The notes beneath the pieces were generated by a model. It was not told the origin of the DNA, ran no database searches, and was given only the letters and a program-made list of their open reading frames with translations. Source: a virus. From it: DNA of 64,000 bases. The stretch is taken from the IMG/VR virus record IMGVR_UViG_2932987669_000002, positions 10,221-74,220 of that record, one strand, 5' to 3'. The stretch's first letter is position 1; each line of letters begins with the position of its first letter. The position numbers and the translations under genes are program-made. Shown here piece after piece: positions 2,137-62,765 of this stretch.

Positions 2137-2165
2137 CTACCTACCGGAACCGGCCTGGAAATGTC
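2137..2165 (-). promoter_or_regulatory. Element-specific bipartite motif, copy 1 (GACAT-N13-CCGGTAGGTAG)
   Basis: Same spacing as the 8 other copies; ends about 30 nt upstream of the ATG at 2106. Confidence 0.75.
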
Positions 2166-2437
2166 GGAGGGGACGGAAAAATCTTGCCGCATGCCAGCGA
2201 AAGCCATGACGCAATGCGTTTGATTGGAGTTCGCCGCTCGTTACGGTGCGAGCGAACTGGTCGGTAGCAGCAAACCCCAACTCTGTGCTGCCAATTCTTG
2301 CTGTATTGTGGCTTGGCGCCGAACCGAAACAACTACCTGAGGGGAAGGTGTATGTAACGGACCAGGAAATTCGCCTAATGCATTGATTTCAATTGTGTTG
2401 TATGCAACACATGAGATGGGCCGTACCAGTGAGGGCT

Positions 2438-2712
2438 TTGAAACCTCACACTTCGTCTTGAAACCTCACCTCACTATCTAAACCCCTGTATTTATTTATA
2501 TTTATATTTTAACAGTGAAGATAGTGAAGTAGTAGGAGGGTCGCCTATATAAGGCCAGGTAAATCAATAGGGATCGAGACTGGGGGGTATTCTGTTAGGA
2601 ACCCCTTTAAGGGGGGGTCGATTCTGGGGGGTATCATCGAAGGTACTCACTATTGTTATAACCATCTCTTGATAAAGGCGTTACTTTGAAGGTGTATTTC
2701 AAAGACCTCACA
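2438..2712. repeat. Short repeats around an AT tract, resembling an origin
   Basis: TTGAAACCTCAC x2 (2438, 2458), AT tract about 2488-2511, AGTGAAG x2 (2514, 2523), CTGGGGGGTAT x2 (2580, 2624), ACCTCACAC again near 2705. Confidence 0.4.
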
Positions 2713-3439
2713 CTCGGAGGATGGTCCCCACAAGGTAATCGCTCTCTACCCCGGCTTCACCGGTTTCCTGTCAGATCGAGCGAGCTGGAATGCCGAGCCA
2801 AACTGGTGCCCTTGATGTCTGGCATGATTCGTTTCCAGTCCCTCCTTTTGCAGCAAGTGCTGTTCGATCGTGTGGACTTGCCTAATCAGGGAATTCCGAC
2901 GCCACTGATGCGGTTCGAGTTGGGCACGGTTGACCGTGAACACCTTGTAGAAAATCCAAATTTCGACAGTTGGACAAAGGGTGTCTGGAGACTTCGGCAA
3001 AATAGAGCAAGCCTAGACACGGCCTTGTTTTGTCGGAAGGTTTGTCAGGTTCGGGGGAAGCAGTAAAAGACATGGAGAAGACTTGATAAATCTTGTTTTT
3101 TAGGTCTTTTTAATTTCAAAAAGACGTCTGTTGTGATATGTTTTGACTCGAGTGATGCCTGCTACTGAGTCGGCAAAAGATAAGGTCATGAAGCCTCACA
3201 GAAGAATGCAAGGCATGATATAACAAAAAAATCCTCCACAAAAAATTACCATCACCTCATCTGCTCTCACACTGAGGAATTCTCATTTGGCGCTGTCCCA
3301 AATGACCATTTGTGCCCAGGACTCCAGAATTCAGAATGCATACCCGTGAATCCCCTCCACGAACCGCTTCGATCCCTATAAACACGAGCCCATCAAAACC
3401 CAACCCATTCCGATATGATGCTTCTGTGAGGTCTGCTCC

Positions 3440-6400
3440 ATGATTGCCAAGCGATTGATTCCGTGTCTCCTGCTCCTAATCGGCCCTGCCTGGGGCGCTT
3501 TCGCGCAGGAAACCATCACCATCGCGCTCGACGACACCGCCCGCTTCCGCGCTGCGGCCACCGCCACCCTTTCCGGCACCGTCACCCCCACTGATGCCAG
3601 CCTTTCGATCGACGGGACCATCCTCGCCCTCGACGGCAATGGCCGCTTCAGCCACGACGTCACCCTCACCGAAGGCCTCAACACCTTTTTCTTCACCGCC
3701 ACCAAGGACGGTTTGCCCGAAGCCCGGCTCAAACGCGACCTATTCCGCGATACTGTTGCCCCGGTTCTCGCCATTTCCGAGCCGCTACCTGACCTACGCA
3801 CCAACCGGACCAGTCTCCACATCATTGGCGAGGCTGGCGACGCCTTATCGAAGCCGGTCACGCTCACCCGCGACGGCCAACCCGTTGCTGTCGTCGGCCA
3901 TCGTTTCTATGACCGCGACGTCCCTCTCCAGTCAGGTGCGAACACCTTCCAATACACCCTCACCGACGCCGCCGGCAACACCGCCGAACAATCGCTCACC
4001 GTGCACCACAAGATCGAACCGCCCACGATTGATCTCACCGCGCCCGGTTCCGTCGATGCCCGTAGCAACTTCGACATCGCCGTTTCCTTCGAACCCGCCG
4101 CCGAGATCGCCTCGGTTCGGGTCTACCTGAACGCGGACTTGGTGCTCGAAGCCAGCGATGGCAGTGCCCTGCAGCAAACCTTCCAGGACGATGGCAGTCG
4201 TGCCAGCCACCAGCTCCGCCTTGAGGTCCGCGACGTCTACGGCAACGAGGCCCAGCTCGAGCGCGACCTGCCGGTGGCGCACCCTAACTTCGTGCATGGC
4301 CTCGTCCTTGACAGCGAGACCAGCCACCCACTGACTGGTGTCACTGTTCAACTTGAAAGCCCCGCGGCCAGCACCACCGCCGTCACCGACGATGCCGGCC
4401 GCTACGTCGCCTATCTGGCCGGCTCACCCATCACCGCCCGCGTCACCGACCCCACCTACGTCCCCATCGCCCGGACCTTGGACGTCCCACCTGCAGGTGG
4501 CGCTCGTCTCTTCGACCTGCGCCTCACCCGCCGCGGCCCGCCTCACTCCACCGCCCAGGTTTTCAGCGATCCCCTCCTTCGGCTCCAGTTTGCCTCCGGC
4601 TTCAGCGGCACCTCCCGCGTCACTCCGCTGCGCACCCAGGCCCTGCCCATCCTGCTCCCTCTCGGCTACGCTCCACTGCGCGCTTTCGAACTGGCCGACG
4701 CCACCGGGATCGGCACACTCCAGGTCCAGCTCCGTCGGCCACCGCGTGAGCTTCCACCGGCCACCGAAGTCCTACTCTTGCGCCGGGACGGCGACGGCTG
4801 GAGGGTCACCGAGCACCTGACTGTCGGTGGCACCCGCATCGACGCCACCTGGACTGCTGCCGGGAACGGCGTCTACGCCGCCGTACTCCGTGATACTCGC
4901 TTCGTTACCGAAACCCCTGCCGTCGGCAGCTTCCTGATCCGCCAAAACCACGCGTGGATTCCGCGCGCAGATACCGCTGACGCGGTCGCGTTTCCTCGAA
5001 TGGTTTCACTCCTAGACACGCCACGCACCCTACTCCGCTTCCTCGCCCACGGTCATCATCCTTCTGGCGCCGTCGCCCGCCTCCGCGCCCGCGAGCACCA
5101 CACCTATTTTGACGGCCAGCACCTGTTCCCCGACTACCTGCTCGACGTGACCTGCTACTACTACGGCGAAAACCTCGACGGCCGCGCCAAGCTGGTGGGC
5201 CGCCTGCCCATCGAGGCGCGCGGTGAGATCACCCGCGGGCACACCCGTGCCGCCTCGATCAAGTTCTACCTGGAAGGTGGGTCACCGCCACTCGGTGGCT
5301 TCCGCTACGACGCGGTGCACGACCTCGGTCCACTCCAGCTCGATTTCGGACCTCAGCCCGTCAATCCCCGCGCCGTCCGCACCCGGCTCGCCGATATCTC
5401 TGACATCCCAATGCCCGCCGGGGCCGAGCGGCTCGCCTCGTTCACGCTCACCGTCGGCCGCGAGCTGGACGCCTCGCCGAGCATTCGCTTCCAGCACGGT
5501 GCCCGTGAAGCGCTGGTTCTGCTGCGCCGCCAGGACGCGGCGACCTGGGTCTACGCCGGCCGGCTGCGCTTCGTCGATGGTGCTTGGCAGGCCGCGCCTG
5601 AAGACGTCGACGTCACCACTACCGGCGCCTATGCTTTGGTTGCCCTGCCGTTTTCGATCACGGAACTGCGCGGTCAGGTCACCTTTGCCGCGAGCCCTGT
5701 TGTCGGGGTCACCCTCCAGACTGAAGTCCACCCTTGGCGGGCGACCAGCGCCGCTGATGGCGGGTTCCGCTTCGCCGTCGCCCGCTGGAACCAGCCCCAG
5801 ACCGTTGACGCCTACGACCCCGCCACCACCCGCAGCGCCCAGCTCCACCTGGCCGACACCTCGACCGATGACCTGCGCGATGGCCTTGACCTCGCGCTTC
5901 AGGCACCCGACTTCCGCCTCGTCGAGCACCGGCCTGCCGCCAACCAGGTCCACGTCAGTCGCCACGAGATCCCCAGCCTCACCTTCTCCCATGCCCTCGG
6001 AGGCACCGTTGACGACTGGACCCAGGCGATCACGCTCCAGGGCGGCGGCACCACCGTCCCGCTGCGCATCCAGCGCCAGGCCGATTACCGCACCCTGACC
6101 CTCAACCCCCAGGCCCCACTCGCTGACGACACCGAGTACACAGTTACGGTTGGCACCAGTCTCCTGAGCCAACATAGCCACCCGTTGGTTTCGGCTGCTT
6201 CGTTCAGCTACCGAACCGCCGACCGAAGCGCCGTCGGCACCCTCGACCTCAAGCGGTTCTACCTCACCGCCAGCGGTGATGACCTCGCCGTCCACGCTCC
6301 GGCCGACGCCTACCCAGCCCGCAGCCAGATCCGCCTGATCAATCGCAATACCGCCGCCACCGTGACCGACACCATGCTGGGTGGCGACTATCAGCGGGGC

Positions 6401-9400
6401 ATCGAGGGGGACATCGGCGACCGGATCCAGGTGGCCGTGACCCGGCCAGATGGCCAATCCGCCTCGATCGAGCTGGACAGCATCCGCACGGGCCCCGGTC
6501 AGGTCATCCTGGGCGGCCAACCCTTCGTGCTCGACCTCGGCGAGGGCACCACCCTCCACATCGAGCGCGTGCTGGACGGCGTCGGCCGCGAGGTCCGCTT
6601 CGCCTTGGCCGACGAGGCCGAGATCCGCGCCGAGCTGGCCAAGGTCCCGCACCACGGCGACGACCCCTTCGGCGCCTTCTACGGCGGGTTGCGCATCACG
6701 CCGCTCGACGGCGGGCCCGTGCCTCGCCTTTCCGGCCGGTTCCAGCTCGACCTCGACCCCGCCACCATTGGGACCGCTATGCTCTCGTTCGTGGCGCTGC
6801 AGCCCGAGGTCTCGTTCCCGGCCAACCCGCTCGAACCGGAGACCCTGACGCCCCACACCTTCGCTACGCTGGCCGATGCCGTCGCCGTCCGCGACGGCCA
6901 GCTCGGCAGCACGACCAAACGAACCCGCACTAAACGGTTCGGCGGCCGCATCGCCGCCTCGCTGGGCCAGGCCTACGCCCGCCTCTACGGCCTATTCCAC
7001 ACCGACAGCACCAGCTTCATCTTCGGCCAGAGTCTGCGCCAGGATGTCCGCAACCAGGTTGATACCACCTACGGCAACCTGATGTGGGTCGAGCCGCCGC
7101 CCTCCTGGTTCAACCCGGACCGCTACACCCGCGCGGGAACCCCCTACTACCCGTGCCAAAACGTCTACTTCTACCAGCGCTTCGGCGATGGTGAGAACGC
7201 CTTCTTCAAGCCGCTCGGTCTCACCGGCCCGCTGGCCGACGGCGACTTTATCGCCGAGCCCGACCCTGGCCAGCCCACCATCCTGGCGATGGACCCAGTC
7301 ACCCATCGGCTCACCTTGCTTGAGCTGCGCCCCTCGAGTGCGTCCTACCTGTTGGCTGGCTCCCGCGCCTACCGAGTCACGGCCTGGCTGCGCTGGCCCA
7401 AGCAAGGCGGTGCCGGCAGCGACGCCGAACTGGAACTCGATTGGCAAGTCGTGACCCTGGACGACGACGAGCCCGTGGTCCACGCCGGCCTGACCGAGAC
7501 CTTTCGGCAGACCGGCAAGCTTCTGCTCGATCCCGGCCAAACCGGGGGCAAAACGCCCCAGATCCAAGTCACGATCAAGGCCGATCAGGCCCTGAAACAC
7601 GCTGTGGCCAAAATCCCTGAGGTGGGCTGGGAAGAGACCGTCACCCGCGACACCCGCCACGACGCGATCACCGTCCTGCTGCCCGCCACCGCCTACGGCA
7701 CCGAACGCAAGCTCGACGTCGCCCTGACCGTGGTGGACATCAAAGACCAGAGCCAGGACGTCTACAAGCGGGTCTGGCTGGTTCGACCCGACCAGGCGGC
7801 GGGCATCCCCAACGTCGCCCCGGCCGTGCTCGCTAGCACGCCCCAGGACAAAGGCACCGACGTCCTGATCGCCGACCCGCTCTACCTCGAATTCAGCGAG
7901 CCGGTCCGCGACGTGGGCCCGGCCAGCGTGACCCTGACCCCCGACGGCGGCGACCCGGTCACGCTGGCCTTCTTCGACGCCAACGGCCTGCCTGTTGAGG
8001 CCGCGACCGAGGTCCGCTTGCTCACGGTCCAACCGACCGAAGCGCTCAAGCTCGACACGGTATACACGCTCGACGTACGCGGGGTCCGCGACCAGGAGAA
8101 CCGCACCCTGCTGCAGCCGGCGGACACCAAGGCCTCGGGCACCGAGCCAGCCAAGGATCACTATCGCATCCAGTTCCGGACCCAGACCAGCAAGCCCCAG
8201 ACGGTGGTGCCGGAGACGGGCGACCTGCGCGCCTACGCCGGGCTACGTAACTTACTGGTAGGCCTGGACGGGATCACGAACCCGGACGGCATCGCCTCCG
8301 GCTTCAAGCTGCGCATCTACGACACCGACACCCGCCACAGCGAGCCACGCCTGCTCACCGAGTACCCCGAGGCGATCCGGGCGCCGGGCATGCTGGCCCC
8401 CAACCTGGTGCTGATCACCAAAGAGGCGTTGGCCGCGGCGCCCGGCGCCGAGGTCTTCGCCATCGAGCGCGACAACCGCGAGCGGCTGCGGGCCTTGCCT
8501 GCCGGGACCATGCTGGTCGTGCAGTACTACTCCTTCGCCCAGCACAGCTACGTCTTGATGTTCCTTCACTACAACGGGGCCAAGTTCGAGGAGAAGGGCC
8601 ACTTCCGTGTGCCAACCACGGGCGCCCAGGGCGGGTTCGCTGCCATCGGGCCATACCTGATCCTGGGTGACTTCGACCTGACCGAGGCCGGCCCAGTCGG
8701 CACGGCTACGGTCCACGACGTGCGCCAGTACCTGGAACAGCTCGCCAACATTGACGCCACCACGCTTCAGGACAGCCTGGGCGGTGGCCGCCACCTTTAT
8801 GCCTGGCAGAAAACCAAGCCGGTGGGTCACTACGCCAACCCGCGCGGCGTGGTCCGACTCGCGCCCTTCCTCCACCAAACCGAGGACGGGCTGGTTCCGG
8901 CCTTCGCCGCGGCCGCCTTCGGCTACCCGGGCTTGAACGCAATCGTGCCCCAGGAATCCGACCTGCTGCCGCCCGTCCATCCGCCTTACGACCGCCGCGC
9001 CCTGGCCAAAACCGTCTGGCCCCACCGCACCGGCACCGAAACCGCGCCAGGTGAGCCGGGTCGCTTTGGCGTCTCCCGCCTGCGCTGCGCCGTGGTCGAG
9101 GCCTTCCCGACCCAATCCGCCCTGGGTGAGACGCTGACCCGCGACATCGCGATCTTCGGTGAGCGCGGCCTCGACCAGGACGGTTCCCTCTATATTTATG
9201 AAGTTCCCGAGAAGACCGACCTCGACCAGGATACCCAGCCGCGCTTCACCCTGGATCTACCTGGCGGGTTCCTGGGTCTGGCCGCCGACCGCGCCCACGG
9301 TCTGGTGGCCGTGCGGACCCGGATCGGCAACGCGATGGGCGTCGGCGTGCTCGACCTGCGGGCACTCTACGCCCGCGGTCGGGCGCAAGGCGTCAGCCAG

Positions 9401-12400
9401 TGGACCCTCGACCAGGCGTTCGCGGAGGAGATGTTCCTGACCTGGATCGACGACGACGCGGACCAAGCCCCGGTGGGGCGCCAATTGTTCATGCACGACG
9501 GCGCGCTTTACTGGAGCCTGTCGGACGAGCGCCTGCGCCGCCTGCCGCTGGCGAGCAACCCCTACCGAACCTTCGGCTGGCTGTCCTACGATCTGGCCCG
9601 CTGGCAGGCCGGTACCGCGCGACACGACACGAGCGGCCGGATCCGCGACCCGCAGGGCATGCTGACCCACCAGCCCTACGGCGTGCTCTACGCCACCGAC
9701 CTGGATGTAGAGAATGGAGAAGAGGCCGACCTGGCCTTCACGGTGGAAATGGGCACCTTCGAGGTCGAGGTTTTCGCCCAGGAGAGCCTGAAGCTGACCT
9801 ACCGGCTCGAAGGCGAATCCGGCACGGCCGAAGTGGTCCACGAGGTCAAGGACGCGAAGGCTCGGACGCTGGTGGGCTTCGACACCCGGAAACTGAACGT
9901 CGCGATCCAGAACCAGGCCAAGGCGCTGCGCGAGCACGGGTTCCTGAAGGGCGAGGTGGCCTTGACCCTCACGCGCCAGGGAACCACCGTGATGCAGCGG
10001 ACCCTGCCGTTCCTGGTCGCCTGGCACAGCGTGCCGACGCGCTATGTGGACGACCTGCGCTTCCACGGCGGCCTCGACCTGCTGACCGGTTCGCCCGAGC
10101 TGCACCAGACCGACCTTGCCGTGAGCGCCCGCGATGCCCGGCTCGACCTGAGCTGGCGCCGCAGTTTCCACCGCGACTACGCCTTCGGTAGCGGGCCTTA
10201 CGGAGTTGGAATGCTCGACGGCGCTCGGCTGTACCAGGCCATGCCGGTCTGGTGGCGGCCGCAGGACGTGGACGCAGTTGATGGCGCCGGTCAGGAGGGC
10301 GAGGAAACCGTCGCACGCAACTTTACCACCGCAAAAGTTCATCAACGGTTGATCTTCGAGCAACCGGGCCAGTTTCAGATCCAGGCCGGCCTCGCCGAAG
10401 ACGGGGACAAGGTCGGGGTGCGCAACGACGCCCTTAGCCAGGTGCGCCGTTTCCCGGACCGCGGCCCCTGGCACCTGATCCACCGCGGCAACGTCGTCTA
10501 CAAGCTCCGCAGCAAACTGCGTTGGCCCGAGTACCGGGACCTGCTGAGCCAAATTAACGAGAGGACCCGCGACAAAAAGGAAACCGACCGACTCCGCTTC
10601 CCGCTGATGCGCTTCCCGGGTTCGATGCAGGCGCCGGGCTCGCTCTACGGCGAGGTTCAGTTGACCGAGCGTGTCGACTACCCCTGGAAGAACCAGATGG
10701 CGGCGGAGGATGCGGCCCGTTTCCCGACAGAGCTTTGGGACGCCCCCAATGACAGCGGTGGCCGGCGCACCATCGACCGGACCTGGAAGATGAATCCAGT
10801 CGGCACCGTGATCGAGACCCAGACGATGCAGACCCGCAGCGTCCAGGGGACCTACGACTACACGGACGACGGCTACCTGGCTCGGGTAGAACTGAACCAA
10901 ACCAGCGGCGGCGGGACACCGCGCGGCTACACCCTGACCTGGAGCGAACCGGTAGCCGAAGTGGGCCAACTCAAACTGCGCCGGCTGGAGAAGGTGGAGG
11001 CGTTGAACGCAGGCGACGACAATGTGGTCTTCGAAGCCCAGTACCCGCCCAAAAGCCTGACCACCTCCAATCTCGGCGACGGCTACTGCCTCCAGAGCCT
11101 CGATGTCGCCCGAGACGGGACGACCGGCTACGTCGTTTCGGTGGCCCTGCCGGGCTGCGGTGAGGTGCCGGAACTGAGGCGGACCTTCGGCACGATGAGC
11201 GGGACACGGCTGTCCTCGGGCTACACCTTCGAAGGGGTCGACGCGACTCACACCTTCTCGCGAACCTGGGAACGGCGCAAACTGGACGGGTTCCGCTTCG
11301 ATCCCGATCAAGGTGGCACGGCCGTGACGATGGGAGACTCGGTTCTGCCTATCCATCAGTGGCAGCTCACGGGTGACAGCTTCGGTGATCAGATCTTCGG
11401 CTATGACGCTTTGGGACGCCTGACCTCCCACCAAATCCACGGCACCAGTCAAAGCTGGACCTACCAGATCATGCCATGGTGGATCGAGACACCCGACACT
11501 ATGACCAACGCAGTGGGTGACAAGCTGCGCTACGAGGTTTCCGAGAAATCGTTGGTCGTCTCCGACGCCAACGCAGATGGCGAAGGTGGCACCAGCGCGA
11601 CCCAAACAACCTTTTTCAGCACCAGCGGCGTGCCCATCCGAACGGAGGACCTGGTGGGTCGGGTTCAGGGCGGCACCACCTCGGTCCACTACAGACCCAG
11701 TGGCAAAGACATGGACGCGGGCTCCTTCAGCACACGATCCCAGAATTTGCCTGGCACCGGCATGGCTATGACCGAGCGCCGTCTTAACCCGTTCGGCGAC
11801 GTGACCGAGGAAAGCCACCTCGACGTCACGAGCCGGTTTACCTACGACGGCTTGGGCCGGCTTGACACCGAGACCGATGTGACGCTGGGCCGCACGCTGA
11901 ATGTCGGTTACGAGGTCGTTTCGGGTCAGGGGCCGCGTATAGCGGTCGTGGACCAAAGCACCGAGATCACCACTGAAACCGACTACGACATCTGGGGCCG
12001 GGTCACGGCCCAGCGGCGAACGGCGCCAGATCCCCAGAACCTGAGCTATACCTATGACGCGTTGGGTCGGTTGGCGCGCACCACTGATACCCAGACCGGC
12101 CAGACCGAAACCTACACCTACTTCGGGACCACGTCCCAGCCAACGCGGGTTGTCACTGGCCAAGGGGGCACCAGCGTCACGACGACCTACGATGTCGTGC
12201 AGAGCGAGAAGGGCCCTATCACCAACCGGGCGACGGTTCAAGCTCAGGGAGAATCCTATGTTGAGCATTTGGTGACCGACGCACTCGGCCGTGTCGAGGA
12301 AACCAAAATGGCGGATGTCGGCAAGGTGCGCATCGTCTACGACGTCTTCGGCCGGGCGACCCGCGTCGAGAAGTTCCTCGAGGACCCGGCTAAGGCCGAC

Positions 12401-20001: not shown

Positions 20002-20039
20002 TCAATGAACGGCGATCGCGACCCAGGCGTGACCGCCAA

Positions 20040-20112: not shown

Positions 20113-20176
20113 TTTGGAATGTAAAAGGTCAAGGAGTTTGCGGGCGCATGGCCACGCCATGGCCCGCAGGTGGGGT

Positions 20177-33563: not shown

Positions 33564-33592
33564 GTCACATCGAAGACCATCCCGGTAGGTAG
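33564..33592 (+). promoter_or_regulatory. Bipartite motif copy 4 (GTCAC-N13-CCGGTAGGTAG)
   Basis: Exact spacing; precedes the portal module. Confidence 0.75.
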
Positions 33593-35250: not shown

Positions 35251-36782
35251 TCGCGGCAACAGCAGCTCGGACACGCGACCCGCTAGCGATTGCGATTCGC
35301 AACGCGACCATTGAAACGGTCGCCGACCGGAACCAATACACCGAGAAGACCGTGTCGGAATTGGTTGCGCTGCTGGAAGCCACACAAAAGGATGTCCATC
35401 GGATCATGTTGCGGGCGAAGACGCAAAACATGGTGGAGAACGACAAACGAGCAAAGACCCATGGCCTTCAGACTCTCGAAAAGGAAATCAGCGCCATAGT
35501 CGGCGATCTCCGCGCCAACAGCTCATTGTTGTTTCGGCGGACGATTCGGGAAGCCTTCAAAAACGGCATTCGGGGTGGGGCTCAAACACTCATGGCCGCG
35601 AGCCTTCCGTATTTCAAGGACCTGGCGCCGAGGGGCTTGAACAAGTTGACCACGTCGGTGTTCCAGGTTATCGACCGCGACGCCTTAGATTTCCTGGCCA
35701 AGTACACGGTTCGCTTGTCAGGCGACGTATCCCGCGAATTGCGCGATGGGATCAAGCGCACCCTGTTGACCGGCATCGTGCGCGGCCTCAGTTCGGAGCA
35801 AATCGCCAAAGAGATGGGCCAGGTCATTCCCGACCTGGAATCGTTTCGAAATGCAGGTGGCCGGGTGTTTTCGAAGGCGCAATATCGGTTGGAACTCATT
35901 GCCCGAACCGAGACCTTGCGTGCGCACAACCAAGGACGGGTCACCTTCTACCAACAAGTCGGTGTCGAGAAAGTGGAATGGCTCACCCTGGACGATGAAC
36001 GGGTATGTCCAGTCTGTGGACCACTGAACGGCCAAGTGTTTCCTATCGATCAGCCTCTTGACCAACCGCGGCATCCGAACTGCCGGTGCACGCACGTGCC
36101 GGCGGGTGACTTCGAAGTTGCCGAGCCTGGCCGCAAACAGAAAGGCGGACTCAAGCCACCGGATGAAATCAACCGTCTGGCGAAGGTCAAAGCCACCAAG
36201 CGACGCGAACGTACTCGCGCCTTCAACAGTGGCGACCCCGCGCAATTGAAAGCCTTGCCCTCTGGTCAACTCGCGCAATTGTCGATCGACGAAGGGTTGA
36301 GCCTGTGGCGATCCAAATCCGAGTTGGTGGCCCAGTTGAACCGCCAAAACCCTGCCGTCGACCACAGCCGCCTGGACGGCGCAGCATTGCAAGCAACTTT
36401 ACGGGCCGCAAACATCGGTCGCCGCCGTGATCGCTCCGAGTTGCTGGCGCAGCTCAAGCGCGCGCAAGCCGAAATGATTGCCCTTCGCGAGAAAGCGGAG
36501 GCCCTGACGCTCAGCGACTTGACGGTGGCCGAACTGCGGGAGCTGGCCAAAGCCTATTCGGTGCCGGTGACCGTCACCCGAAAGGACGTGATCGACATCG
36601 CGACCGACCGATACCCCAAACGCGATTGGACGGAAGTGGCTGGCGCCGAGCTGGCCGCCCTTCGTCGCAAGATGGGCCTGAGCACCGTCAAGACCAAGGA
36701 TCAATTGATTCGAGCCATCGAAGACCGCCTGGGTGCGCGCCTGGCCAAAAAGGCCATCAACCGTCCGACACTTCGCAAGTGA
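35247..36782 (+). CDS. Head morphogenesis protein (MuF / SPP1 gp7 family) with C-terminal extension
   Basis: IARTETLRAHNQG, W.T.DDERVCPVC, HPNCRC motifs. Confidence 0.9.
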   Translation: MIAATAARTRDPLAIAIRNATIETVADRNQYTEKTVSELVALLEATQKDVHRIMLRAKTQNMVENDKRAKTHGLQTLEKEISAIVGDLRANSSLLFRRTIREAFKNGIRGGAQTLMAASLPYFKDLAPRGLNKLTTSVFQVIDRDALDFLAKYTVRLSGDVSRELRDGIKRTLLTGIVRGLSSEQIAKEMGQVIPDLESFRNAGGRVFSKAQYRLELIARTETLRAHNQGRVTFYQQVGVEKVEWLTLDDERVCPVCGPLNGQVFPIDQPLDQPRHPNCRCTHVPAGDFEVAEPGRKQKGGLKPPDEINRLAKVKATKRRERTRAFNSGDPAQLKALPSGQLAQLSIDEGLSLWRSKSELVAQLNRQNPAVDHSRLDGAALQATLRAANIGRRRDRSELLAQLKRAQAEMIALREKAEALTLSDLTVAELRELAKAYSVPVTVTRKDVIDIATDRYPKRDWTEVAGAELAALRRKMGLSTVKTKDQLIRAIEDRLGARLAKKAINRPTLRK

Positions 36783-36798
36783 TTGCTTTAGGTAGATA
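36767..36798 (+). promoter_or_regulatory. Bipartite motif copy 5 (GACAC-N13-GCTTTAGGTAG)
   Basis: Variant sharing TTGCTTTAGGTAGATA with copy 9. Confidence 0.65.
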
Positions 36799-43423: not shown

Positions 43424-43461
43424 GACACTTGGCTCGCCATCCCGGTAGGTAGAAAAGGAAG
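43424..43461 (+). promoter_or_regulatory. Bipartite motif copy 6 (GACAC-N13-CCGGTAGGTAG-AAAAGGAAG)
   Basis: Exact spacing; directly before the tail module. Confidence 0.75.
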
Positions 43462-51282: not shown

Positions 51283-51321
51283 GTCACTTCCTGGATGATT
51301 TCGGTAGGTAGAAAAGAGAAG
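51283..51321 (+). promoter_or_regulatory. Bipartite motif copy 7 (GTCAC-N13-TCGGTAGGTAG-AAAAGAGAAG)
   Basis: Exact spacing; before the hub gene. Confidence 0.75.
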
Positions 51322-53399: not shown

Positions 53400-53407
53400 T
53401 CAATCAG

Positions 53408-53437
53408 GGGAAGCCCGGAACGACCGGGTTTCCCTTT
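53408..53437 (+). terminator. Hairpin terminator after the lysis genes
   Basis: GGGAAGCCCGG-AACGA-CCGGGTTTCCC-TTT. Confidence 0.55.
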
Positions 53438-53456
53438 CATCGGGGATAGGATTGCC

Positions 53457-54431: not shown

Positions 54432-54440
54432 GGTGCCATC

Positions 54441-55211: not shown

Positions 55212-55561
55212 ACACCCCTAACGGATCCCACCAAGCACCCCACGGCAACGGCTTCATCGTGCACGCGTTGCGGGACTTCAAAGAAGATGTTCGCACCATC
55301 CTGACCGAACACAAGGAAGCCATCACGAAACGCTTGGCCCAAATCGAATCCAGCCTTGCCAACAAGTCCGACCGGGCTTACGTGAACTTGCTGATTGAAC
55401 AACTTCGTTCGGACCTGCAGGCCCAGGCGGTGGACATCGAGAAAATCGAAGCCGAGCTGGTCAAAAAGATGAACACGGAAGCGATGTGGAAGTTGGTGTC
55501 GGTCATCTTGGCGGTCATCACCGCCTTGGCCGGCTTCATCGGCTTCCTGATCCAGAAGTGA
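55208..55561 (+). CDS. Coiled-coil protein with C-terminal TM helix
   Basis: Coupled ORF ending VILAVITALAGFIGFL. Confidence 0.65.
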   Translation: MNTPNGSHQAPHGNGFIVHALRDFKEDVRTILTEHKEAITKRLAQIESSLANKSDRAYVNLLIEQLRSDLQAQAVDIEKIEAELVKKMNTEAMWKLVSVILAVITALAGFIGFLIQK

Positions 55562-55568
55562 GCGCGTA

Positions 55569-55829
55569 GTGAAACCCGCGGCGCGTCTCGGGGACGCCAC
55601 CAGTCACGGTGGCACCATCGTCACCGGATCGACGACGGTCACTGTCGACGGAAAACCAGTCGTCCGCATGGGTGATGTGCACGTTTGCCCTCTGCGCGGG
55701 CACGGCCTGAACTCCGTCGTGACAGGCTCCGCTCGAGGCCTGGCCGACGGTCGCCCCATCGCGGCGCTGGGTGACCAAACCGCCTGTGGCGCGATCATCG
55801 TCGGCGGCAGTACCAATGCCATGATTTGA
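55569..55829 (+). CDS. PAAR spike-tip protein
   Basis: PAARLGD..SHGG, PVVRMGD.H.CP, PIAALGD.T.CGA. Confidence 0.95.
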   Translation: MKPAARLGDATSHGGTIVTGSTTVTVDGKPVVRMGDVHVCPLRGHGLNSVVTGSARGLADGRPIAALGDQTACGAIIVGGSTNAMI

Positions 55830-55840
55830 AGGATGGAACC

Positions 55841-56149
55841 ATGCCGGTAACCTGGTGGGACGTCGAACCCAAAAAGATTCGACAAACGCAAAGCTTCGAC
55901 GGTGTGGTGGTGCCGGTGGTGATTCGGGGCAACCCGCCGGCGGTGCCCTATCTCGAAATCGGTGACGAATCGATTGCGGAAGCCCATGGAAGCGGCTTGC
56001 GAATCGGAAACAAGATCGGTGCGACCATGGTCACGGTTCGGGCCGGTCCATCGGTGCGATACATTCAAGTCGAAGTAATCGACGAAACCGCGACCGGTTA
56101 CCAGCCTGGCGACGATCCCCACGATCCAAGCACCTGGGGGAACGGATGA
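55841..56149 (+). CDS. Hypothetical protein
   Basis: Start MPVTWWD after AAGGA; coupled to the next ORF. Confidence 0.65.
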   Translation: MPVTWWDVEPKKIRQTQSFDGVVVPVVIRGNPPAVPYLEIGDESIAEAHGSGLRIGNKIGATMVTVRAGPSVRYIQVEVIDETATGYQPGDDPHDPSTWGNG

Positions 56150-56919
56150 TCTTCGACGAGACATACACTAGCCCATCCGACTATTTCATGCACTTGGCCA
56201 ACGAGCGCGCTGTAGATCTGGAGGGTCGCGCCAACACAGTGTTGAACGCTCACGAGCAGGCCGTTCAGGACTACACGCGCCAGGCCGAGGCACCCGACTG
56301 GTACCCGTTTGTCGTGTTGCCCACGGGGACCGAAGCCCGTGAGTTGCCGGACGGGGGACGCCTGTTCATCCTGTCCGATGGAGCGGTTTTGGTCGCTTCG
56401 GCACCCCAGGCCTTTCCATTCATCGATCCCCAGGGCAATCAGTCCGTGTTGACATCCCAAGGAAAGTGGCTCCATCTGCCCGACGGCCGCACGTTTGAGC
56501 TTGCGGACGGTGCTCCTGTTGCTTCCACCAGCCAAGCGGGCATAGAGGGCTTGCCTCACCATGTTGGCTTGATTGATTTGGGCCACCAACGCTATCGCGG
56601 TTCCTTCCCTGACTTCGACCTGATCGTGGACCACCCCGCCCGGGTGGCGACGGTCATCAATGAGACCGGAACCGTTCTCATCCTTGGTTCCGAGATTCGC
56701 GCGGTTGGGGAAGCGATCCAAGTGCATCCCGCCGGTGACGGCGGCCGTGGTTTCCATGCCGACTCCGGTCATGCCGGCTTGGTCGAGTTGACCGGAGACA
56801 TTCGCTTGAGCGCGGCGGGCGGCGTCGATCTTGTGATTCGGTTCCCGGTTCAAACGCAACCGGAACCCGTCGTTCGATCACCCGGGCCCTTTCGATGTAG
56901 TCAAGGGGAGCCGGTATGA
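56146..56919 (+). CDS. Hypothetical beta-rich protein
   Basis: 257 aa, ATGA-coupled on both sides. Confidence 0.7.
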   Translation: MIFDETYTSPSDYFMHLANERAVDLEGRANTVLNAHEQAVQDYTRQAEAPDWYPFVVLPTGTEARELPDGGRLFILSDGAVLVASAPQAFPFIDPQGNQSVLTSQGKWLHLPDGRTFELADGAPVASTSQAGIEGLPHHVGLIDLGHQRYRGSFPDFDLIVDHPARVATVINETGTVLILGSEIRAVGEAIQVHPAGDGGRGFHADSGHAGLVELTGDIRLSAAGGVDLVIRFPVQTQPEPVVRSPGPFRCSQGEPV

Positions 56920-57329
56920 CGGATTTCCTCGGTAAGGGGCTTTCATTCCCGTTTCGGTTCTCACCGCGAACGGGCGGGACGGCGGTGTCATCGTCTACGT
57001 CGTTCCATCCTGACCACATCCACGAATCGATCACTCAAATCCTTGGGACGCGGCTTGGTGAGCGCATCCACCGGCCCGATTTCGGTAGCCGCCTTCACGA
57101 GCTGGTGTTCGAACCCAACGATCGCATTTTGAAGGCCTTGCTTCGCCAATACATCAGCCAGGCGCTTCGCCGATGGGAACCGCGTATTCGCGTGACGTCG
57201 ATCGCGTTCGACGACAACCCCGTCGTCACGGACCAAAACCGCCTGGACGTTCACATGCACTATTCGATCATCGCCACCAACACCGAAGCGAATTTTGTAT
57301 ATCCCTTTTACCGCCAGCCGCCAACCTGA
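56916..57329 (+). CDS. Baseplate wedge gp25/GPW-like
   Basis: FLGKG..FPF, IL.TR.GER..RPDFGS.L, RWEPRI. Confidence 0.95.
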   Translation: MTDFLGKGLSFPFRFSPRTGGTAVSSSTSFHPDHIHESITQILGTRLGERIHRPDFGSRLHELVFEPNDRILKALLRQYISQALRRWEPRIRVTSIAFDDNPVVTDQNRLDVHMHYSIIATNTEANFVYPFYRQPPT

Positions 57330-57347
57330 TTGCTTGGAGTATTCCCC

Positions 57348-58775
57348 ATGACCAAGGCCCGCTTGGACTACAGCCGCAGGGACTACGAATCGATTCGGCG
57401 CGACCTCATCGCCAAGATCCCGTTGCTGACCGATCAGTGGACCGACCACAACCCGAGCGACTTGGGCATGGTCCTGTTGGAGTTGTTCGCGGCGGTCGGT
57501 GACCTGCTTGCGCATCACCAAGATACAATTGCGGCCGAAACCTATCTGGCGACGGCCCAGGAACGTCAAAACCTCATCAACTTGTGTGCCCTGATCGGTT
57601 ACCGATTGGATCGGCCCGTTCCGGCTGCGACGGTGATTCAATTCGAAGTGGACGCCCCCCTGACGGAAGATCTCGCGATTCCGCGCGGCACGGCCTGCGT
57701 GGCCGCCGTACCCGACGAGAACGGAACGATTGAAGAAATCCCCTTCGTGACCTCCGAAAACGCGACCTTGGTGACCGGTGAACGCGTCGTTCAGGTGGCT
57801 GCAGTTCAAGGACGACTGTTCGAGGAGTCGTTCGCGGCGACTGGCGCGGCCTGGCAACAGTTCGAATTGCACGCCCACGACTTGGCTCAAGGGCACTTTC
57901 ACCTGTGGGTGGACGATGACCCCTGGTCGGAGGTGGCCCACTTCCAGGATGCCATTCATAGTTCACGTCAGTTCGTTCTGACCACCGACGGCGATGACCT
58001 CACGCGGGTGCGCTTTGGGGACGGCATTCGTGGCGCGATTCCCCAGGCTGGCCAAACCGTCAAGGTCACCTACCTGCGGACGCTCGGCACCCGTGGCAAT
58101 CTTGGCCCCCGGCTCATCAACCGCACCACCGAAACCTTCTACGCTGGCGGCTTGCCCATCCGTCTTCGGGTGACCAACCTGATTCCGGCCACCGGCGGCG
58201 CTAATCGGGAATCCATCGACCACGCCAGACTGCAAGCACCGGCCGAGCTTGAAGCACTGTGGCGCGGCGTCACCAAGGACAATTACCAAGCGCTTGTCGA
58301 GGGGTTCCCTGGTGTCGCCAAAGCCCAGGTGATCGACGTCAACGACTGCGCCAGCGTGCGATACTTCCAGGTCAACCTGGCCGTGGCGCCCAACGGCGGC
58401 GGCCATCCGTCCCCGCAATTGCTCCGCGACCTGCAAGGTTTCCTCGATGACCGCAAGGTGATTACCCAAGAGATCCGATTGTTCGATCCCGACTATGTGC
58501 CCATTGATGTGCACGTCCGCTGCACGCTCACATCGGAGACCAGCCAAGCCGAGTCTCGGCCCAATCTCGAACACGTCCTGGCCGACCACTTCGATTTCGA
58601 CCGTGTGGGCTTTGGCCAAACCATTTCGCCCTTGGATCTTCGCGCCAACCTGGAACGAGTGGCCGGCGTGGTCAGCGCCGTCGTGATCCAACCGGCCGCC
58701 GATCATCAGCTCGGCCTCGGTCAGATTCCTACCTTGGGAACCGTCCAGATTGATTTGGTGGGGGGCCGAACGTGA
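57348..58775 (+). CDS. Baseplate J-like protein
   Basis: DY..RDY..I, WTDHNPSDLGM.LLELFA, FGDG..G.IP, GG...ES. Confidence 0.92.
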   Translation: MTKARLDYSRRDYESIRRDLIAKIPLLTDQWTDHNPSDLGMVLLELFAAVGDLLAHHQDTIAAETYLATAQERQNLINLCALIGYRLDRPVPAATVIQFEVDAPLTEDLAIPRGTACVAAVPDENGTIEEIPFVTSENATLVTGERVVQVAAVQGRLFEESFAATGAAWQQFELHAHDLAQGHFHLWVDDDPWSEVAHFQDAIHSSRQFVLTTDGDDLTRVRFGDGIRGAIPQAGQTVKVTYLRTLGTRGNLGPRLINRTTETFYAGGLPIRLRVTNLIPATGGANRESIDHARLQAPAELEALWRGVTKDNYQALVEGFPGVAKAQVIDVNDCASVRYFQVNLAVAPNGGGHPSPQLLRDLQGFLDDRKVITQEIRLFDPDYVPIDVHVRCTLTSETSQAESRPNLEHVLADHFDFDRVGFGQTISPLDLRANLERVAGVVSAVVIQPAADHQLGLGQIPTLGTVQIDLVGGRT

Positions 58776-60310
58776 CCCGCTTCGATCTTATCCGCCTGCT
58801 TCCCGAGCTTTACCGAACCGCCGACGTCAATGGCGACCTGGCGCGTTTTCTCTCTCTTCCCGAATTGGAATTGAACGGCTTGGCGGCGTCCGCCGACCGT
58901 TTGCCGAGCCTGATCGACCTGGATCACATCGATCCTCGTTTCCTCGACCTGCTTGCCTCGCTCTCGGGAATCCGTCTGAATCCCGGCTGGGACTTGGACC
59001 TTCAACGCCTGACGATTCGTGACGCCGTGCCGAACTTTCGGCGGCGGGCCACGTTGCCGGCCCTGATACGGGACCTAACCCTTGCCGGTTGGGCTGGTGA
59101 CATCACCGAAACCTTCCGCGACACCCACCGCTTGAACCTACGCGCCGCCATCAACCAAGCCAAGTTGGCCGGCCGCATCAACAGTCTGGGCGTGTTCCGA
59201 GTTAGGAGTGACACCCAAATCGACAAGGTTCGGGACATCATCGAGCCCCATCATCCCGCCGGCACCGCGGTCTATTTTTGGCAATGGCTCTATGCCTGGG
59301 AAGATCCTGAACCTTTGGTGTTCGGCCACCTCAAGGCGTTCTTCGATCAGTTCTCGTTTTCCGATCTTTCCGGGATCTTCGATTTGAACACCAGTCCGGT
59401 CAACGGCACCCGCAAACTCACGCGGCGCAAATCGCGATTCGAGTTGATGGACGTGAGTGTCGGAACCACGCTTCGACCGGAGCCCTTGCCGTCGCCCACC
59501 TGTCTGGCCCAGTGGCACCGCCCGTTTCCAGGTCGGTTACGAACGAATCGACCATCACTGAACAGAACCAAGTTCACCAACACTTGGGTGAGCGAGCGAA
59601 AGGTGGTCGTCGAACATCTGTTTACCAGCCAGAACCGGGAACCGAAGTCGGGGAGGATCAATACATATATAAACGGTCCCCATCTTCCGCAGGCCGAACC
59701 GACCGAGCTGTTCAAGTTTCGGCAACGGGACCTGATCGATCTGCAGGTCATAGAACCCGAGCCGATCGATCCTGTTCGCGCACTGGTGTGCGCTTCCTGG
59801 AACCAACCGCGGGTTGGGTTCCACATGGGTCGGTCACGACTCAATCAATCCTCGCCTTTGGCCGGTCGCCTGCTTGGCGGTCATGCCCGTGCCCTGATGC
59901 TGGTCGCCGCTGCGACAACGTCCCCTGACCTGGCTGCCGGTCGCGTCGATCGATGGCAACGGCCGTCCCGGTTCTGGTCACTCGGGCATGCGGCCTTGAA
60001 CCAAAGTCCCCTCACCGATGCCCACGTGACTGATGACCGCTTGGCCCTGGAAGTGTTCGGGTCAACGAGCTGGCCGTCGCTGCCGTTCGCCCTGAACCGA
60101 GGCACACTCAACCATCGCGGCTTGCACCTGGCGACCGAGCCAACCACGCCGATTCGGCTGGGATGGGGCCGCCTAAACCAAGCCGGAATCCGGAGTGCCG
60201 AACAGGATTACCGCTGGCATGTCCGCCAGGATGACGAGAAGGACATCCTGACCCCGAATCTGGAAGTCGCTTCCACCCGTTTTGAAGTCACACGCTGGCC
60301 GGATCCTTAG
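58772..60310 (+). CDS. Baseplate/tail protein I (P2 gpI-like) with repeated extension
   Basis: LI.LLP.LY...D..G.L.RFL, D..FL..LA...G; repeated LN..L motifs. Confidence 0.8.
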   Translation: MTRFDLIRLLPELYRTADVNGDLARFLSLPELELNGLAASADRLPSLIDLDHIDPRFLDLLASLSGIRLNPGWDLDLQRLTIRDAVPNFRRRATLPALIRDLTLAGWAGDITETFRDTHRLNLRAAINQAKLAGRINSLGVFRVRSDTQIDKVRDIIEPHHPAGTAVYFWQWLYAWEDPEPLVFGHLKAFFDQFSFSDLSGIFDLNTSPVNGTRKLTRRKSRFELMDVSVGTTLRPEPLPSPTCLAQWHRPFPGRLRTNRPSLNRTKFTNTWVSERKVVVEHLFTSQNREPKSGRINTYINGPHLPQAEPTELFKFRQRDLIDLQVIEPEPIDPVRALVCASWNQPRVGFHMGRSRLNQSSPLAGRLLGGHARALMLVAAATTSPDLAAGRVDRWQRPSRFWSLGHAALNQSPLTDAHVTDDRLALEVFGSTSWPSLPFALNRGTLNHRGLHLATEPTTPIRLGWGRLNQAGIRSAEQDYRWHVRQDDEKDILTPNLEVASTRFEVTRWPDP

Positions 60311-60312: not shown

Positions 60313-60350
60313 GACAGATGGGCCCGCGCTCCGGTAGGTAGGAAAGGAAG
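60313..60350 (+). promoter_or_regulatory. Bipartite motif copy 8 (GACAG-N13-CCGGTAGGTAG-GAAAGGAAG)
   Basis: Exact spacing. Confidence 0.75.
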
Positions 60351-60391: not shown

Positions 60392-60997
60392 ATGACCTTG
60401 CGCGTATTCCTCGACGCCGCGTTAACCAACCCCATCAGCGCGGATGGCGATTTCTCCAACCCGGACACCGGCACCTTCAACGGAACCGACGGAGATTCCA
60501 AGGACCGCCAATTGTGGATCGCCAACAGTCAGGCAGCACTTTCCGCGGCAGCCGATGCCAGCCAAACCCAGATCTCGCTGACCCGACCGGTCTTCGCCGA
60601 TGGCGATGTATTGGTCGTTGGTTTCGAACACCTGCGGGTGTTTTCTGGCGGCGGGACCGTAACCCTGACCGTCGAGCGCGGTTATGCGGGGTCAACCGCT
60701 GCCGAGCATATCGCCGATGCGGTGGTTTACAGTGCCCTGGATCATGGCGATGTGACCGTGTCGGTATACGATGCCGAAGGCTCCGACGAACGTCAATGGA
60801 TCCGCTTGGCCGTCGATCAGGCCGCATTGGACACGGCCACCGACGGTGCCTCGTTGGTTCTGGGTGCCAAGCCGCACGATCAGGTATTGACCTTTTGGCG
60901 GCGGGTCACCGTGCCGGCCGGAACCCCGGTACAAGCCAAGATCGATCTGGGCCTTGAAATCTCAGCCATCGAAAGCCCGGCCCAGGCAGGTGCGTGA
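60392..60997 (+). CDS. Hypothetical tail-associated protein
   Basis: GGGGGA RBS; 201 aa, beta-rich. Confidence 0.7.
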   Translation: MTLRVFLDAALTNPISADGDFSNPDTGTFNGTDGDSKDRQLWIANSQAALSAAADASQTQISLTRPVFADGDVLVVGFEHLRVFSGGGTVTLTVERGYAGSTAAEHIADAVVYSALDHGDVTVSVYDAEGSDERQWIRLAVDQAALDTATDGASLVLGAKPHDQVLTFWRRVTVPAGTPVQAKIDLGLEISAIESPAQAGA

Positions 60998-61983
60998 TGG
61001 CGTATCACAGCGCTTCTGGGACCGCGCCGAACAAGCCCGCCTTCTATGATGCCTTGAAATCGTTCGCCACTACCATCGGTTGGTCGACCATCGATGAAGA
61101 CACTTCGGGATCCGAGCCGTTCACGGTCTTTCAATCGCCTGGCGAATCGGGTCAATCTCGGCTTGTGGTTCAGGTGATCAACCGGGACCGGAATCACCAG
61201 ATCAGCGTGTACGGCTACCAAAGCTGGGACAGTGACACCCACGCAGGCGTCAACCAAGCGGGCTACTCGTCGGGTAGCTACGTGTATGTCAATGAGTCGA
61301 CCGATTCCCTGTACTGGTTGTTCGGCGACCTGGATCATTTGTTCACCGTCGTGAAAATCGGCGCCAACTATTTCGGATTCTATGCCGGCCTGATCAAAAG
61401 CTACTATCCCGCAGACACAACCCGATTGCTGGACCCCGTGCCCGCAGGCAATCACGTGACGGTGTCGGTGAATGACGCATCTCCCTTCGAGCCCGATCAA
61501 CACCTCATGATTTTGGACACGGCAAACGTCCAACGCACAAAACTGGTCTCGCTGGATACGGAAAACCAGCCTCATACCGTAACGCTCGAGAATCTATAGA
61601 CGCCCTTCCTGGCCGATTCGTTTCTCGGTACGGATCCACTCCCGCTCATTGTGGGGCGTCATTCGAACACGGCGATTTACGCCCTCAACCATTCGCAGGG
61701 GTACAGCGGCCCAACCTCCCAACAGGGATTGTTGACACCCGCGCATGGCGGCGACTGGGACAGTTATACGTCCCCCAATTCAAGAACGGGAAAAGCCGTC
61801 CTGTTCCCGATGTTCGCGGGCCACAACCAATCAGCGACCGGTGAACTCCGCGGCGAATTGATTGACGTGTTCGCGATGGGCGGCGAAGGACTCGACAGCG
61901 AAGATATCGTGGAAGTCGGCCAAGTCCAATACCGGGCCTTCAATTTGGCCTCGCTCGGTTGGGTCGCGGTGAGGCTGCAATGA
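60994..61983 (+). pseudogene. Tail-associated gene interrupted by one in-frame TAG (61597-61599)
   Basis: ORFs 60994..61599 and 61651..61983 share a frame, and the linker TPFLADSFLGTDPLPLI is open. Confidence 0.7.
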
Positions 61984-62091
61984 ACCATTCGGGCACCATC
62001 CTGATCATTGCGACCCAGTCGGGGCGAATCCGGCCGCAACCCAAACGCGGCCAAGTTCGATTCCCAGCCATCCGGATTCACGGGGCGCTCG

Positions 62092-62742
62092 ATGCCCATA
62101 CTCGGTGAGCGCCTAGACATCCACACCCGCGAAGGTGACATCAAGCCACAGTTCCGCGCCTCCACGTCGATTCTTCCGGCCCATCACTTTCGGTTGCAGG
62201 TGGAAGGCGCGCATGACGATTCGAATCAATCCCGACGTGCCGTTCGGCTTGCGTCTCGTTGGCGTGTCGCACAACAGGCCTCTTTACGGTCGCCGGTGCA
62301 CTACACGATCCAAACCTCGAGCACCAGGAACCTGGATCGCGTTTGGCGGATCAACGAGCGACGCATCTCGAAAACCTGTGGCCGCTGGATGCTTGCCGGT
62401 TCCATGAAACGACAGGTGCCGATAGCGATGCGCGTACTCGTAAAGCGACGTATTCGTGCCGCGCTCTTGATCCAAGTCGCACAGGATTCCGTTGATGTGC
62501 TCCGTGCCCGTTGGGTGATCGGATGGGGCACCCGACAACGAGGCTCGCATCGATGGCGTGTTGCCAACCGAACCAAACGACCCTTGGACCTTCACATGGG
62601 TATCGGGGCCGAAATGGCCTTGCGCCTCGCGGCGGACTTCCGGGTCGGCCTGGCTCGATCAGCCACCGCAACAACCAAGCAAGTCGTCTATGAAGTCGTG
62701 ATTTCCGAAACCCACGAAATCGACATTTCTGCCGACACCTGA
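62092..62742 (+). CDS. Arg-rich hypothetical protein (start uncertain; a 42-aa ORF 61980..62108 precedes it, possible frameshift)
   Basis: ORF 62008..62742; sits in operon position. Confidence 0.45.
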   Translation: MPILGERLDIHTREGDIKPQFRASTSILPAHHFRLQVEGAHDDSNQSRRAVRLASRWRVAQQASLRSPVHYTIQTSSTRNLDRVWRINERRISKTCGRWMLAGSMKRQVPIAMRVLVKRRIRAALLIQVAQDSVDVLRARWVIGWGTRQRGSHRWRVANRTKRPLDLHMGIGAEMALRLAADFRVGLARSATATTKQVVYEVVISETHEIDISADT

Positions 62743-62765
62743 CACGCATTTGCTTTAGGTAGATA
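62734..62765 (+). promoter_or_regulatory. Bipartite motif copy 9 (GACAC-N13-GCTTTAGGTAG)
   Basis: Shares TTGCTTTAGGTAGATA with copy 5. Confidence 0.65.

Follow-up and report, generated by a model that had tools for sequence, protein, structure and literature searches.

A bipartite motif at the module heads of a temperate prophage and the phage-encoded sigma factor that probably reads it

Bipartite motif copies in an integrated phage element

The stretch of DNA considered here, called the window throughout, comprises the 64,000 nucleotides (nt) at positions 10,221 to 74,220 of the IMG/VR virus record IMGVR_UViG_2932987669_000002 and corresponds to bases 9567846-9631845 of a bacterial genome available as a single contig of 11.79 Mb with 60% G+C. 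It forms part of an integrated element whose gene modules are headed by copies of a bipartite motif; this motif is most likely the promoter of a phage transcription system complete in itself, and read by an extracytoplasmic-function (ECF)-type sigma factor that the phage encodes. A 160-bp direct repeat with 90.6% identity between its two occurrences, at genome 9550868-9551027 (L003:2868-3027) and 9648075-9648234 (L004:17075-17234), sets the boundaries of the element and thus its length of ~97 kb. The two repeats are probably attL and attR, derived from the duplicated 3' part of a gene for 232 amino acids (aa), and a tyrosine integrase gene (L004:15515-16873, minus strand) adjoins the right one. 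The virion gene set is complete and of the myovirus type, with terminase, portal, Mu F-like, head, neck, sheath, tube, tape-measure, baseplate-wedge and fibre-network genes, and a replication/recombination operon located upstream of the window encodes an AAA_24 ATPase, a DUF669 protein, an ERCC4 nuclease, a RecD2-type helicase and a primase. Judged by these genes, the element is a temperate myovirus-like prophage; 20 kb of its virion region compared by megablast with GenBank phages gave no match. The host is probably of the planctomycete type, judging from where relatives of the sigma factor occur.

A sequence-only reading of the window had described nine copies of the motif, all with the same spacer, all oriented towards a downstream gene module and several followed by a purine-rich stretch, and had taken them for a late promoter read by an element-encoded sigma factor or activator located outside the window. 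All nine are present where that reading had placed them, as exact matches to GWCR-N14-BCKK-TAGGTAG in the window. The distance from block to block is the same in every copy, the spacer that had been written as N-N13 amounting to 14 unspecified bases, and (A/G)AAAGGAAG or a near variant follows most copies. The chance level for this pattern in the window is 0.01 matches, and no dinucleotide-preserving shuffle attains nine; the heptamer TAGGTAG alone occurs 12 times in the window against 0.96 expected. Across the genome the degenerate pattern has 11 matches, of which 10 lie within 9.560-9.631 Mb, so that an equal frequency at random host loci is not seen. A position-weight scan of the whole 11.79-Mb genome adds one weaker copy at 9556456, which reads CCAGTAGGTAG, and finds no other strong site outside the element, whose total is thereby eleven: nine copies in the window and two just upstream of it, all between the 160-bp repeats. 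Because both scans show near-total confinement, the motif is specific to the element and is not a host-wide word. When the pattern is relaxed to GAC[AG]-N15-CGGTA[AG], 72 matches are found scattered over the genome, and this form is too loose for an enrichment test.

The full consensus, cCGACAc-N14-15-(C/T)C(G/T)(G/T)TAGGTAG, consists of two conserved blocks that are separated by a spacer variable in sequence but constant in length, and it has no dyad symmetry. TAGGTAG is preceded by CGG in eight copies (CAG in the weak one) and by CTT in the remaining three, which head the replication, head and fibre modules; among the eleven copies, no clear relation of subclass to module type is apparent. 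The copies and the genes that they head are given below, in window coordinates unless otherwise stated.

Genome 9556456: weak copy, ahead of a small helix-turn-helix-like gene that precedes the sigma gene
3 nt past the end of the sigma-nuclease open reading frame (ORF) L003:10020-12203: copy of the CTT subclass, heading the replication/recombination operon
2137..2165, minus strand: copy GACA..CCGGTAGGTAG, heading an operon of a gene for a 321-aa protein without known function (2106-1141) and a gene for a pentapeptide-repeat protein (961-2)
25308..25336, plus strand: copy ahead of small genes without known function and a TPR protein (25388-28693), with the start at +52
28761..28789, plus strand: copy ahead of the large terminase gene, which contains an intein (28811-31558), with the ATG at +22
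33564..33592, plus strand: copy ahead of the portal gene (33700-35250) and a Mu F-like head morphogenesis gene (35247-36782)
36767..36795, plus strand: copy of the GCTT-TAGGTAG subclass, heading the head module with a 416-aa protein (36827-38077), the major head protein (38485-39348) and a neck/tail-completion protein (40498-40995)
43424..43452, plus strand: copy heading the tail module with sheath (44321-46174), tube (46206-46667) and tape measure (47499-50789)
51283..51311, plus strand: copy heading the baseplate module (51356-60310) with a tail protein, a peptidase/endolysin-like protein, a GT2 glycosyltransferase and baseplate wedge subunits
60313..60341, plus strand: copy beginning 3 nt past the preceding stop codon, ahead of four genes, structural or without known function (60392-62742)
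62734..62762, plus strand: copy of the GCTT-TAGGTAG subclass, ahead of a tail-fibre-network gene (62841-63437) and then, beyond the window, a gene for a 1192-aa DUF4815 protein

The orientation towards gene modules extends to the complete set: all eleven copies lie at gene boundaries and point in the direction of the next gene, with a ribosome-binding site and a start codon 14-142 nt 3' of TAGGTAG. For the minus-strand copy at 2137..2165, an ATG with a ribosome-binding site stands 31 nt downstream; the copy at 36767..36795 overlaps the final 16 nt of the preceding gene, and a T-run lies just upstream of the one at 43424..43452. The purine-rich AAAGGAAG was considered as a ribosome-binding site for the gene that opens each module, and rejected, as most starts in the prophage lie 20-140 nt further on and have ribosome-binding sites of their own; in the relatives of the GGACA class introduced below, the equivalent AAGGAG stands 8-10 nt before the ATG. 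As for timing, the earlier proposal of a late promoter does not hold for the whole set: because one copy heads the replication/recombination operon, the regulon would be middle and late, not late only.

A sigma-nuclease gene upstream of the window

The element-encoded reader that had been predicted outside the window has a candidate in the flank, a gene at genome 9558020-9560203 (L003:10020-12203), 7.6 kb upstream of the window, with a product of 727 residues. Pfam PF04542 (Sigma70_r2) matches residues 70-117 with 29 bits against a cut-off of 24, and NCBIfam TIGR02937 (sigma70-ECF) matches residues 28-240 with 48.5 bits against a cut-off of 42.9; the latter match spans model positions 21-158 of 165, covering both region 2 and region 4. 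The proposed reader domain is thus confined to the N-terminal ~200 residues (L003:10101-10740). The AlphaFold model, based on 57 family members, reaches a mean predicted local distance difference test score (pLDDT) of 84 and displays two helical domains with a disordered linker between them, the C-terminal helical bundle exceeding a pLDDT of 90. Foldseek matches of this model in the PDB are mostly sigma factors at a probability of ~1.0, among them E. coli sigmaE, M. tuberculosis SigK, SigH and SigL, SigW and AlgU; the global template modelling (TM) scores are low, at 0.27-0.33, as expected for two domains on a flexible linker. ECF factors lack regions 1.1 and 3 and comprise ~170-220 residues, and most of the best 150 relatives are indeed stand-alone proteins of ~180-230 residues. 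By its family matches and predicted fold, the N-terminal part is an ECF-type (group 4) sigma factor.

Directly upstream of the sigma gene are two paralogous 103-aa ORFs on the plus strand (L003:9228-9539 and 9626-9937) without family assignment. Homologues of one of them precede the sigma gene in the IMG/VR contigs G002 and G003; both are candidates for a co-factor or an anti-sigma factor. Elsewhere in the host genome, a second and weaker sigma homologue lies at 5619675-5620205 (plus strand, E 9e-16), and 2.2 kb downstream of it, at 5622411 (plus strand), is a degenerate copy of the motif, CCGACA-N15-CTCGGTAGATCG, which is the best weak matrix match outside the prophage. Together, these two may mark another related prophage or its remnant.

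The sigma ORF also codes, within a single chain, for a PD-(D/E)XK nuclease of the RecB/Cas4-like kind (residues 402-699), which is joined to the sigma domain by a linker of 170 low-complexity residues that holds no intact motif. This fusion is not a one-off error, since at least five further protein clusters have the same arrangement. The proteins P0160-P0163 and P0168, of 552-559 residues and from independent contigs, match the nuclease domain with 50-55% identity over 45-50% of the query, and P0162 and P0168, the two that were aligned pairwise, also match the sigma domain with 25-30% identity. In the contigs of P0160, P0161 and P0162 the fusion gene precedes the same operon of AAA_24, DUF669, ERCC4, helicase and primase genes. 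Fusion relatives of the prophage gene are located as follows.

L164:10001-11680: fusion relative
L166:5092-6768: fusion relative
L165:9368-11026: fusion relative

In L164 and L166 a variant of the motif, GCGACG-N15-CCGGTAGCTA, is found in frame within the linker, at nucleotide 610 of the ORF; past it come a Shine-Dalgarno-like sequence and an internal ATG, where the nuclease domain begins. The simplest reading of this layout is that an ancestral stand-alone sigma gene, followed by its own promoter, lost its stop codon, and that the nuclease would still be made from the promoter now internal to the fused gene. In the linker of the prophage gene itself, L003:10844-10872 reads CCGACGG, 14 bases and CCGGGAACA, with the right geometry and a degenerate 3' block; it may be a decayed relic of an internal promoter such as that of L164 and L166.

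Co-occurrence of sigma factor and motif, and competing explanations

The association between sigma factor and motif can be followed from either side. Starting from the motif, an exact scan of IMG/VR for GACA-N15-CGGTAGGTAG yields 101 stretches, mostly single chance matches, of which 26 exceed the threshold of the full weight matrix and read GGACA-N15-GCGGTAGGTAGTGAAGGAG. Of five contigs chosen on the motif alone, four encode a homologue of the sigma factor, with 32-33% identity and E values of 1e-26 to 1e-30; the remaining contig is a half-complete fragment. In each of these four, one copy of the motif lies directly past the stop codon of the sigma gene, and one or two more are found elsewhere on the same strand. 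The only proteins that tblastn finds in common between the prophage and the motif-bearing contigs are the sigma factor and AAA_24, together with DUF669 as a marginal match in G004 and, in two contigs, the small ORF that precedes the sigma gene. No virion gene is detectably shared between them, and the sigma factor therefore travels with the motif.

Starting from the sigma factor, an alignment of five members was run against IMG/VR and against one genome per prokaryotic species, giving 22 and 27 loci, respectively; this alignment-based scan was needed, as a single sigma sequence finds no confirmed relative in IMG/VR. Many of the loci belong to Planctomycetota, and others to a Bryobacterales genome (Acidobacteriota), to Desulfosarcina cetonica and other Desulfobacterota, to a Sandaracinaceae metagenome-assembled genome (MAG; Myxococcota), to a Methylococcus MAG, to an Anaerolineales MAG and to further taxa. 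The strict pattern GAC[AG]-N15-[CGT]GGTAGGTA starts no more than 120 nt past the sigma match in 28 of the 49 loci, with representatives in Planctomycetota, Acidobacteriota, Desulfobacterota and Myxococcota. Over the 696 kb of these loci it occurs 39 times, 37 times on the strand of the sigma gene, the number to be expected from base frequencies being an estimated ~0.1. At most of the other loci a recognisable variant stands in the same place, for example CCGGTATGTA, CCGGTAAGTA, TCGGTAGGCA or CCGGTAGGTGA.

These loci fall into classes according to the upstream block, designated here as the -35 element, and each class is paired below with the helix of region 4 that would contact it.

-35 GGACA: region-4 helix RETGMxRSxIY
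-35 CCGACGG: region-4 helix RDTGxPRGTIYE
-35 CCGACAC: region-4 helix RETGVPRGTxYE, in this prophage RDLGVPRATIYD
-35 GCGACCA: region-4 helix HVPRCxLQR
-35 CCGCCAC: region-4 helix GVPRRTVRD

In this comparison, which is qualitative and makes no correction for shared descent, the -35 class varies together with the aligned recognition helix of region 4, as expected of a sigma factor and its promoter. In the CCGACGG class (L138:10544-10600, L137:10559-10615, L122, L123, L140 and L141), the sequence past the downstream block, GACCGGGTCGG, repeats the -35 region CCGACGGTC imperfectly and in inverted orientation, and may form an operator or an attenuator hairpin at the promoter that follows the sigma gene. 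The window itself occurs in no RNA run, and contigs from four runs labelled RNA (one of which is probably DNA) that map to the relative L138 are low-depth pieces, uninformative on transcript ends. When 1.84 billion representative proteins are searched exhaustively with a profile, the family comes to 481 members at E <= 1e-30 and to 3315 at E <= 1e-10, as compared with a single match from a word-indexed protein search with the sigma domain; the public names of its members are 'hypothetical protein', 'sigma-70 family' and 'sigma24 family'.

The sigma gene, its predicted fold, the co-occurrence seen in both directions and the co-variation with region 4 all support the proposal that the motif is a promoter for an element-encoded sigma factor. 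Upon induction of the prophage, early transcription, presumably by means of the host primary sigma factor, would yield the ECF-type sigma, which would then bind the core RNA polymerase of the host. Region 4 would read the upstream block cCGACAc (or cGTCAc) and region 2 the block (C/T)C(G/T)(G/T)TAGGTAG, a fixed 14-15 bp further on, and transcription would start a few bases downstream, within or just before AAAGGAAG. In this manner the eleven promoters would turn on the replication/recombination operon and every virion module, and positive feedback may come from the weak copy that lies 1.5 kb before the sigma gene. The spacer is rigid and measures 15-17 bp depending on the register of the -10 element, which fits the geometry of ECF promoters; this register is uncertain, as the downstream block is long and its first bases vary in three copies. 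Polymerase binding, the -10 bases, the start sites, sigma-dependent initiation and timing are inferred.

Several points weigh against this proposal. The downstream block is 10-11 bp long and near-invariant, as opposed to the 4-5 bp usual for the -10 element of an ECF promoter, and three copies out of eleven have CTT in place of CGG before TAGGTAG; there may be a second factor in contact with this block. The small ORFs neighbouring the sigma gene (L003:8531-8860, 9228-9539 and 9626-9937) match no family at threshold, leaving no anti-sigma factor recognised among them, and a scan for sigma-70-type promoters around the sigma gene located no early promoter. The qualitative character of the pairing between -35 element and region 4 counts on the same side. 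Finally, with a nuclease joined to it through a linker, the activity of a free sigma factor is not assured in this prophage.

The length of the downstream block is also the starting point of the alternative that survives best, improbable as it is overall, namely that the promoter needs a phage DNA-binding activator (like Mu C/Mor, P2 Ogr or RinA) together with a host sigma factor, the phage sigma being either not the reader or only one of two. An activator would account for a block unusually long for an ECF -10 element, and candidates for it stand just upstream of the sigma gene in the shape of the two paralogous 103-aa ORFs, one of them conserved in G002 and G003, and the helix-turn-helix-like ORF. 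There is also a precedent for a second phage protein in phiEco32, whose gp36 requires the helper gp79 (PMC8948821). However, the sigma factor is nearly the sole protein that the prophage has in common with the motif-bearing contigs (AAA_24, the marginal DUF669 and the small ORF found by tblastn being the others), the -35 block co-varies with the region-4 helix of that very sigma factor, and the motif lacks dyad symmetry, with no known activator family matched.

In comparison, a host sigma factor is most unlikely to be the reader, whether it be the primary one, with cCGACA as -35 and TAGGTA as -10 element at an 18-bp spacing, or a host ECF factor. In outline, cCGACA-N18-TAGGTA resembles TTGACA-N17-TATAAT. 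However, the same motif recurs alongside the phage sigma in hosts of different phyla, and the rest of the 11.8-Mb genome is without a strong copy and thus offers no host regulon. The -10 element of primary sigma-70 promoters ends in T, and TAGGTA lacks this final T.

Cluster A mycobacteriophages have asymmetric repressor sites scattered over their genomes. With this precedent in mind, and given a conserved purine-rich follower that could act in RNA, the motif might be no promoter at all (an operator or 'stoperator' site for a repressor, an antitermination site or an RNA-processing site), or else the promoter of a phage RNA polymerase, yet there is very little chance of either, since the distance to the start codon (14-142 nt) is too variable for a translation signal, the upstream block would be outside any RNA, every copy stands at a module head and none inside an operon, no RNA polymerase domain occurs in any scanned ORF of the element, and the T7-type family PF00940 has no match in the genome, the last being a weak negative because control genomes are equally silent.

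Cargo, known systems and significance

Besides its replication and virion genes, the prophage has among its cargo a tRNA cluster as well as genes for CHAT-domain proteins and two Rhs-repeat proteins. The features are the following, in window coordinates unless otherwise stated.

3440-16318, plus strand: Rhs protein of 4292 aa with Big_5 and RHS repeats, 68% G+C, with no motif in front
L004:9726-15038, plus strand: Rhs protein of 1770 aa with RHS repeats and, just below cut-off, an Ntox10-like tip; no motif in front
19930-21694, minus strand: four tRNA genes, one of which (20177-20249) is called with the four-base anticodon cttc in an 8-nt loop
20262-21614: ORF of 450 aa without family match, flanked by the tRNA cluster
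L003:3834-6597, minus strand: island of ~40% G+C, at the element's left end, that contains a small ORF and the genes of two caspase-like CHAT-domain proteins and is adjoined by a gene for a NAGPA-family glycosidase
28811-31558, plus strand: large terminase gene into which an intein is inserted; the intein has a LAGLIDADG homing-endonuclease domain (Intein_splicing and LAGLIDADG_3)

Inteins are also present in P0169 and P0170, which are homologues of the nuclease part of the sigma fusion, and in the helicase of L165.

In terms of function, the closest parallels are found among phages with sigma factors of their own. Salmonella phage 7-11 encodes the sigma factor gp47 and has eight bipartite late promoters, GTAAtg-(16)-aCTA, with transcription starting 6-9 bp from the element, and the ECF-like gp36 of coliphage phiEco32 reads the middle/late motif tAATGTAtA with its helper gp79 (PMC8948821). 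Like 7-11 gp47, the protein described here is a phage sigma factor with a homologue of region 4 that is predicted to act on the core RNA polymerase of the host, and in both cases about ten bipartite promoters with a fixed spacer stand ahead of late modules. In contrast to 7-11, which is a lytic enterobacterial podovirus, the phage is a temperate myovirus-like prophage, the consensus is unrelated, the regulon includes the replication operon and the sigma factor is fused to a nuclease. With phiEco32 gp36 it shares an ECF-related phage sigma, a phage-specific motif and, as predicted, control over both middle and late genes; however, the gp36 promoters are single-element and gp36 has no homologue of region 4, whereas here the upstream block co-varies with region 4, and no helper like gp79 has been identified. 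As the consensus matches neither GTAAtg-(16)-aCTA nor tAATGTAtA, the likeness to 7-11 and phiEco32 is one of function, not of family membership.

The resemblance to cellular ECF factors (group 4, with E. coli sigmaE, B. subtilis SigW and M. tuberculosis SigH and SigL) is one of architecture: sigma2 and sigma4 domains in ~190 residues, a rigid spacer between the two promoter blocks, and a promoter copy near the sigma gene that points to possible auto-regulation. It differs from them in a -35 element of CGACA rather than GGAAC/GAAC, in a downstream block of CCGGTAGGTA rather than CGTC/CGTA, in the lack of a recognised anti-sigma partner, and in being phage-borne, with virion genes as its predicted targets. 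Other phage sigma factors that redirect the host RNA polymerase to middle and late promoters are gp28 and gp33/34 of Bacillus phage SPO1 and gp55 of T4, whose late promoters have no -35 element and require the sliding clamp; these belong to different sigma lineages and have different promoter consensus sequences. No paper on this sigma family or its promoter was found in the literature, a full-text search for CGGTAGGTA together with 'promoter' returning only unrelated primer sequences.

The fusion raises the question as to whether a recombination nuclease is tethered to phage promoters, or whether active sigma factor is released only after processing, should the fused protein be functional. 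Doubtful as they are, two proposals would follow: that a functional fusion couples promoter recognition to DNA-end processing and, separately, that CGACA-N15-CCGGTAGGTA together with a sigma factor of ~190 residues makes up a host-independent orthogonal module. The former, if true, would constitute a new regulatory architecture for ECF sigma factors with C-terminal extensions. As regards the latter, the combination is kept in at least four phyla, and because the promoter core accompanies the sigma factor across them, the pair is a candidate for a portable orthogonal expression switch. For the family as a whole, a large group of phage sigma factors hitherto named only generically would be given a concrete target promoter. 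The motif would lay out the middle and late transcription of a ~97-kb temperate phage in a large-genome bacterium, and may serve as a marker of where operons begin, to be used for predictions in the many prophages without annotation and phage contigs from metagenomes.

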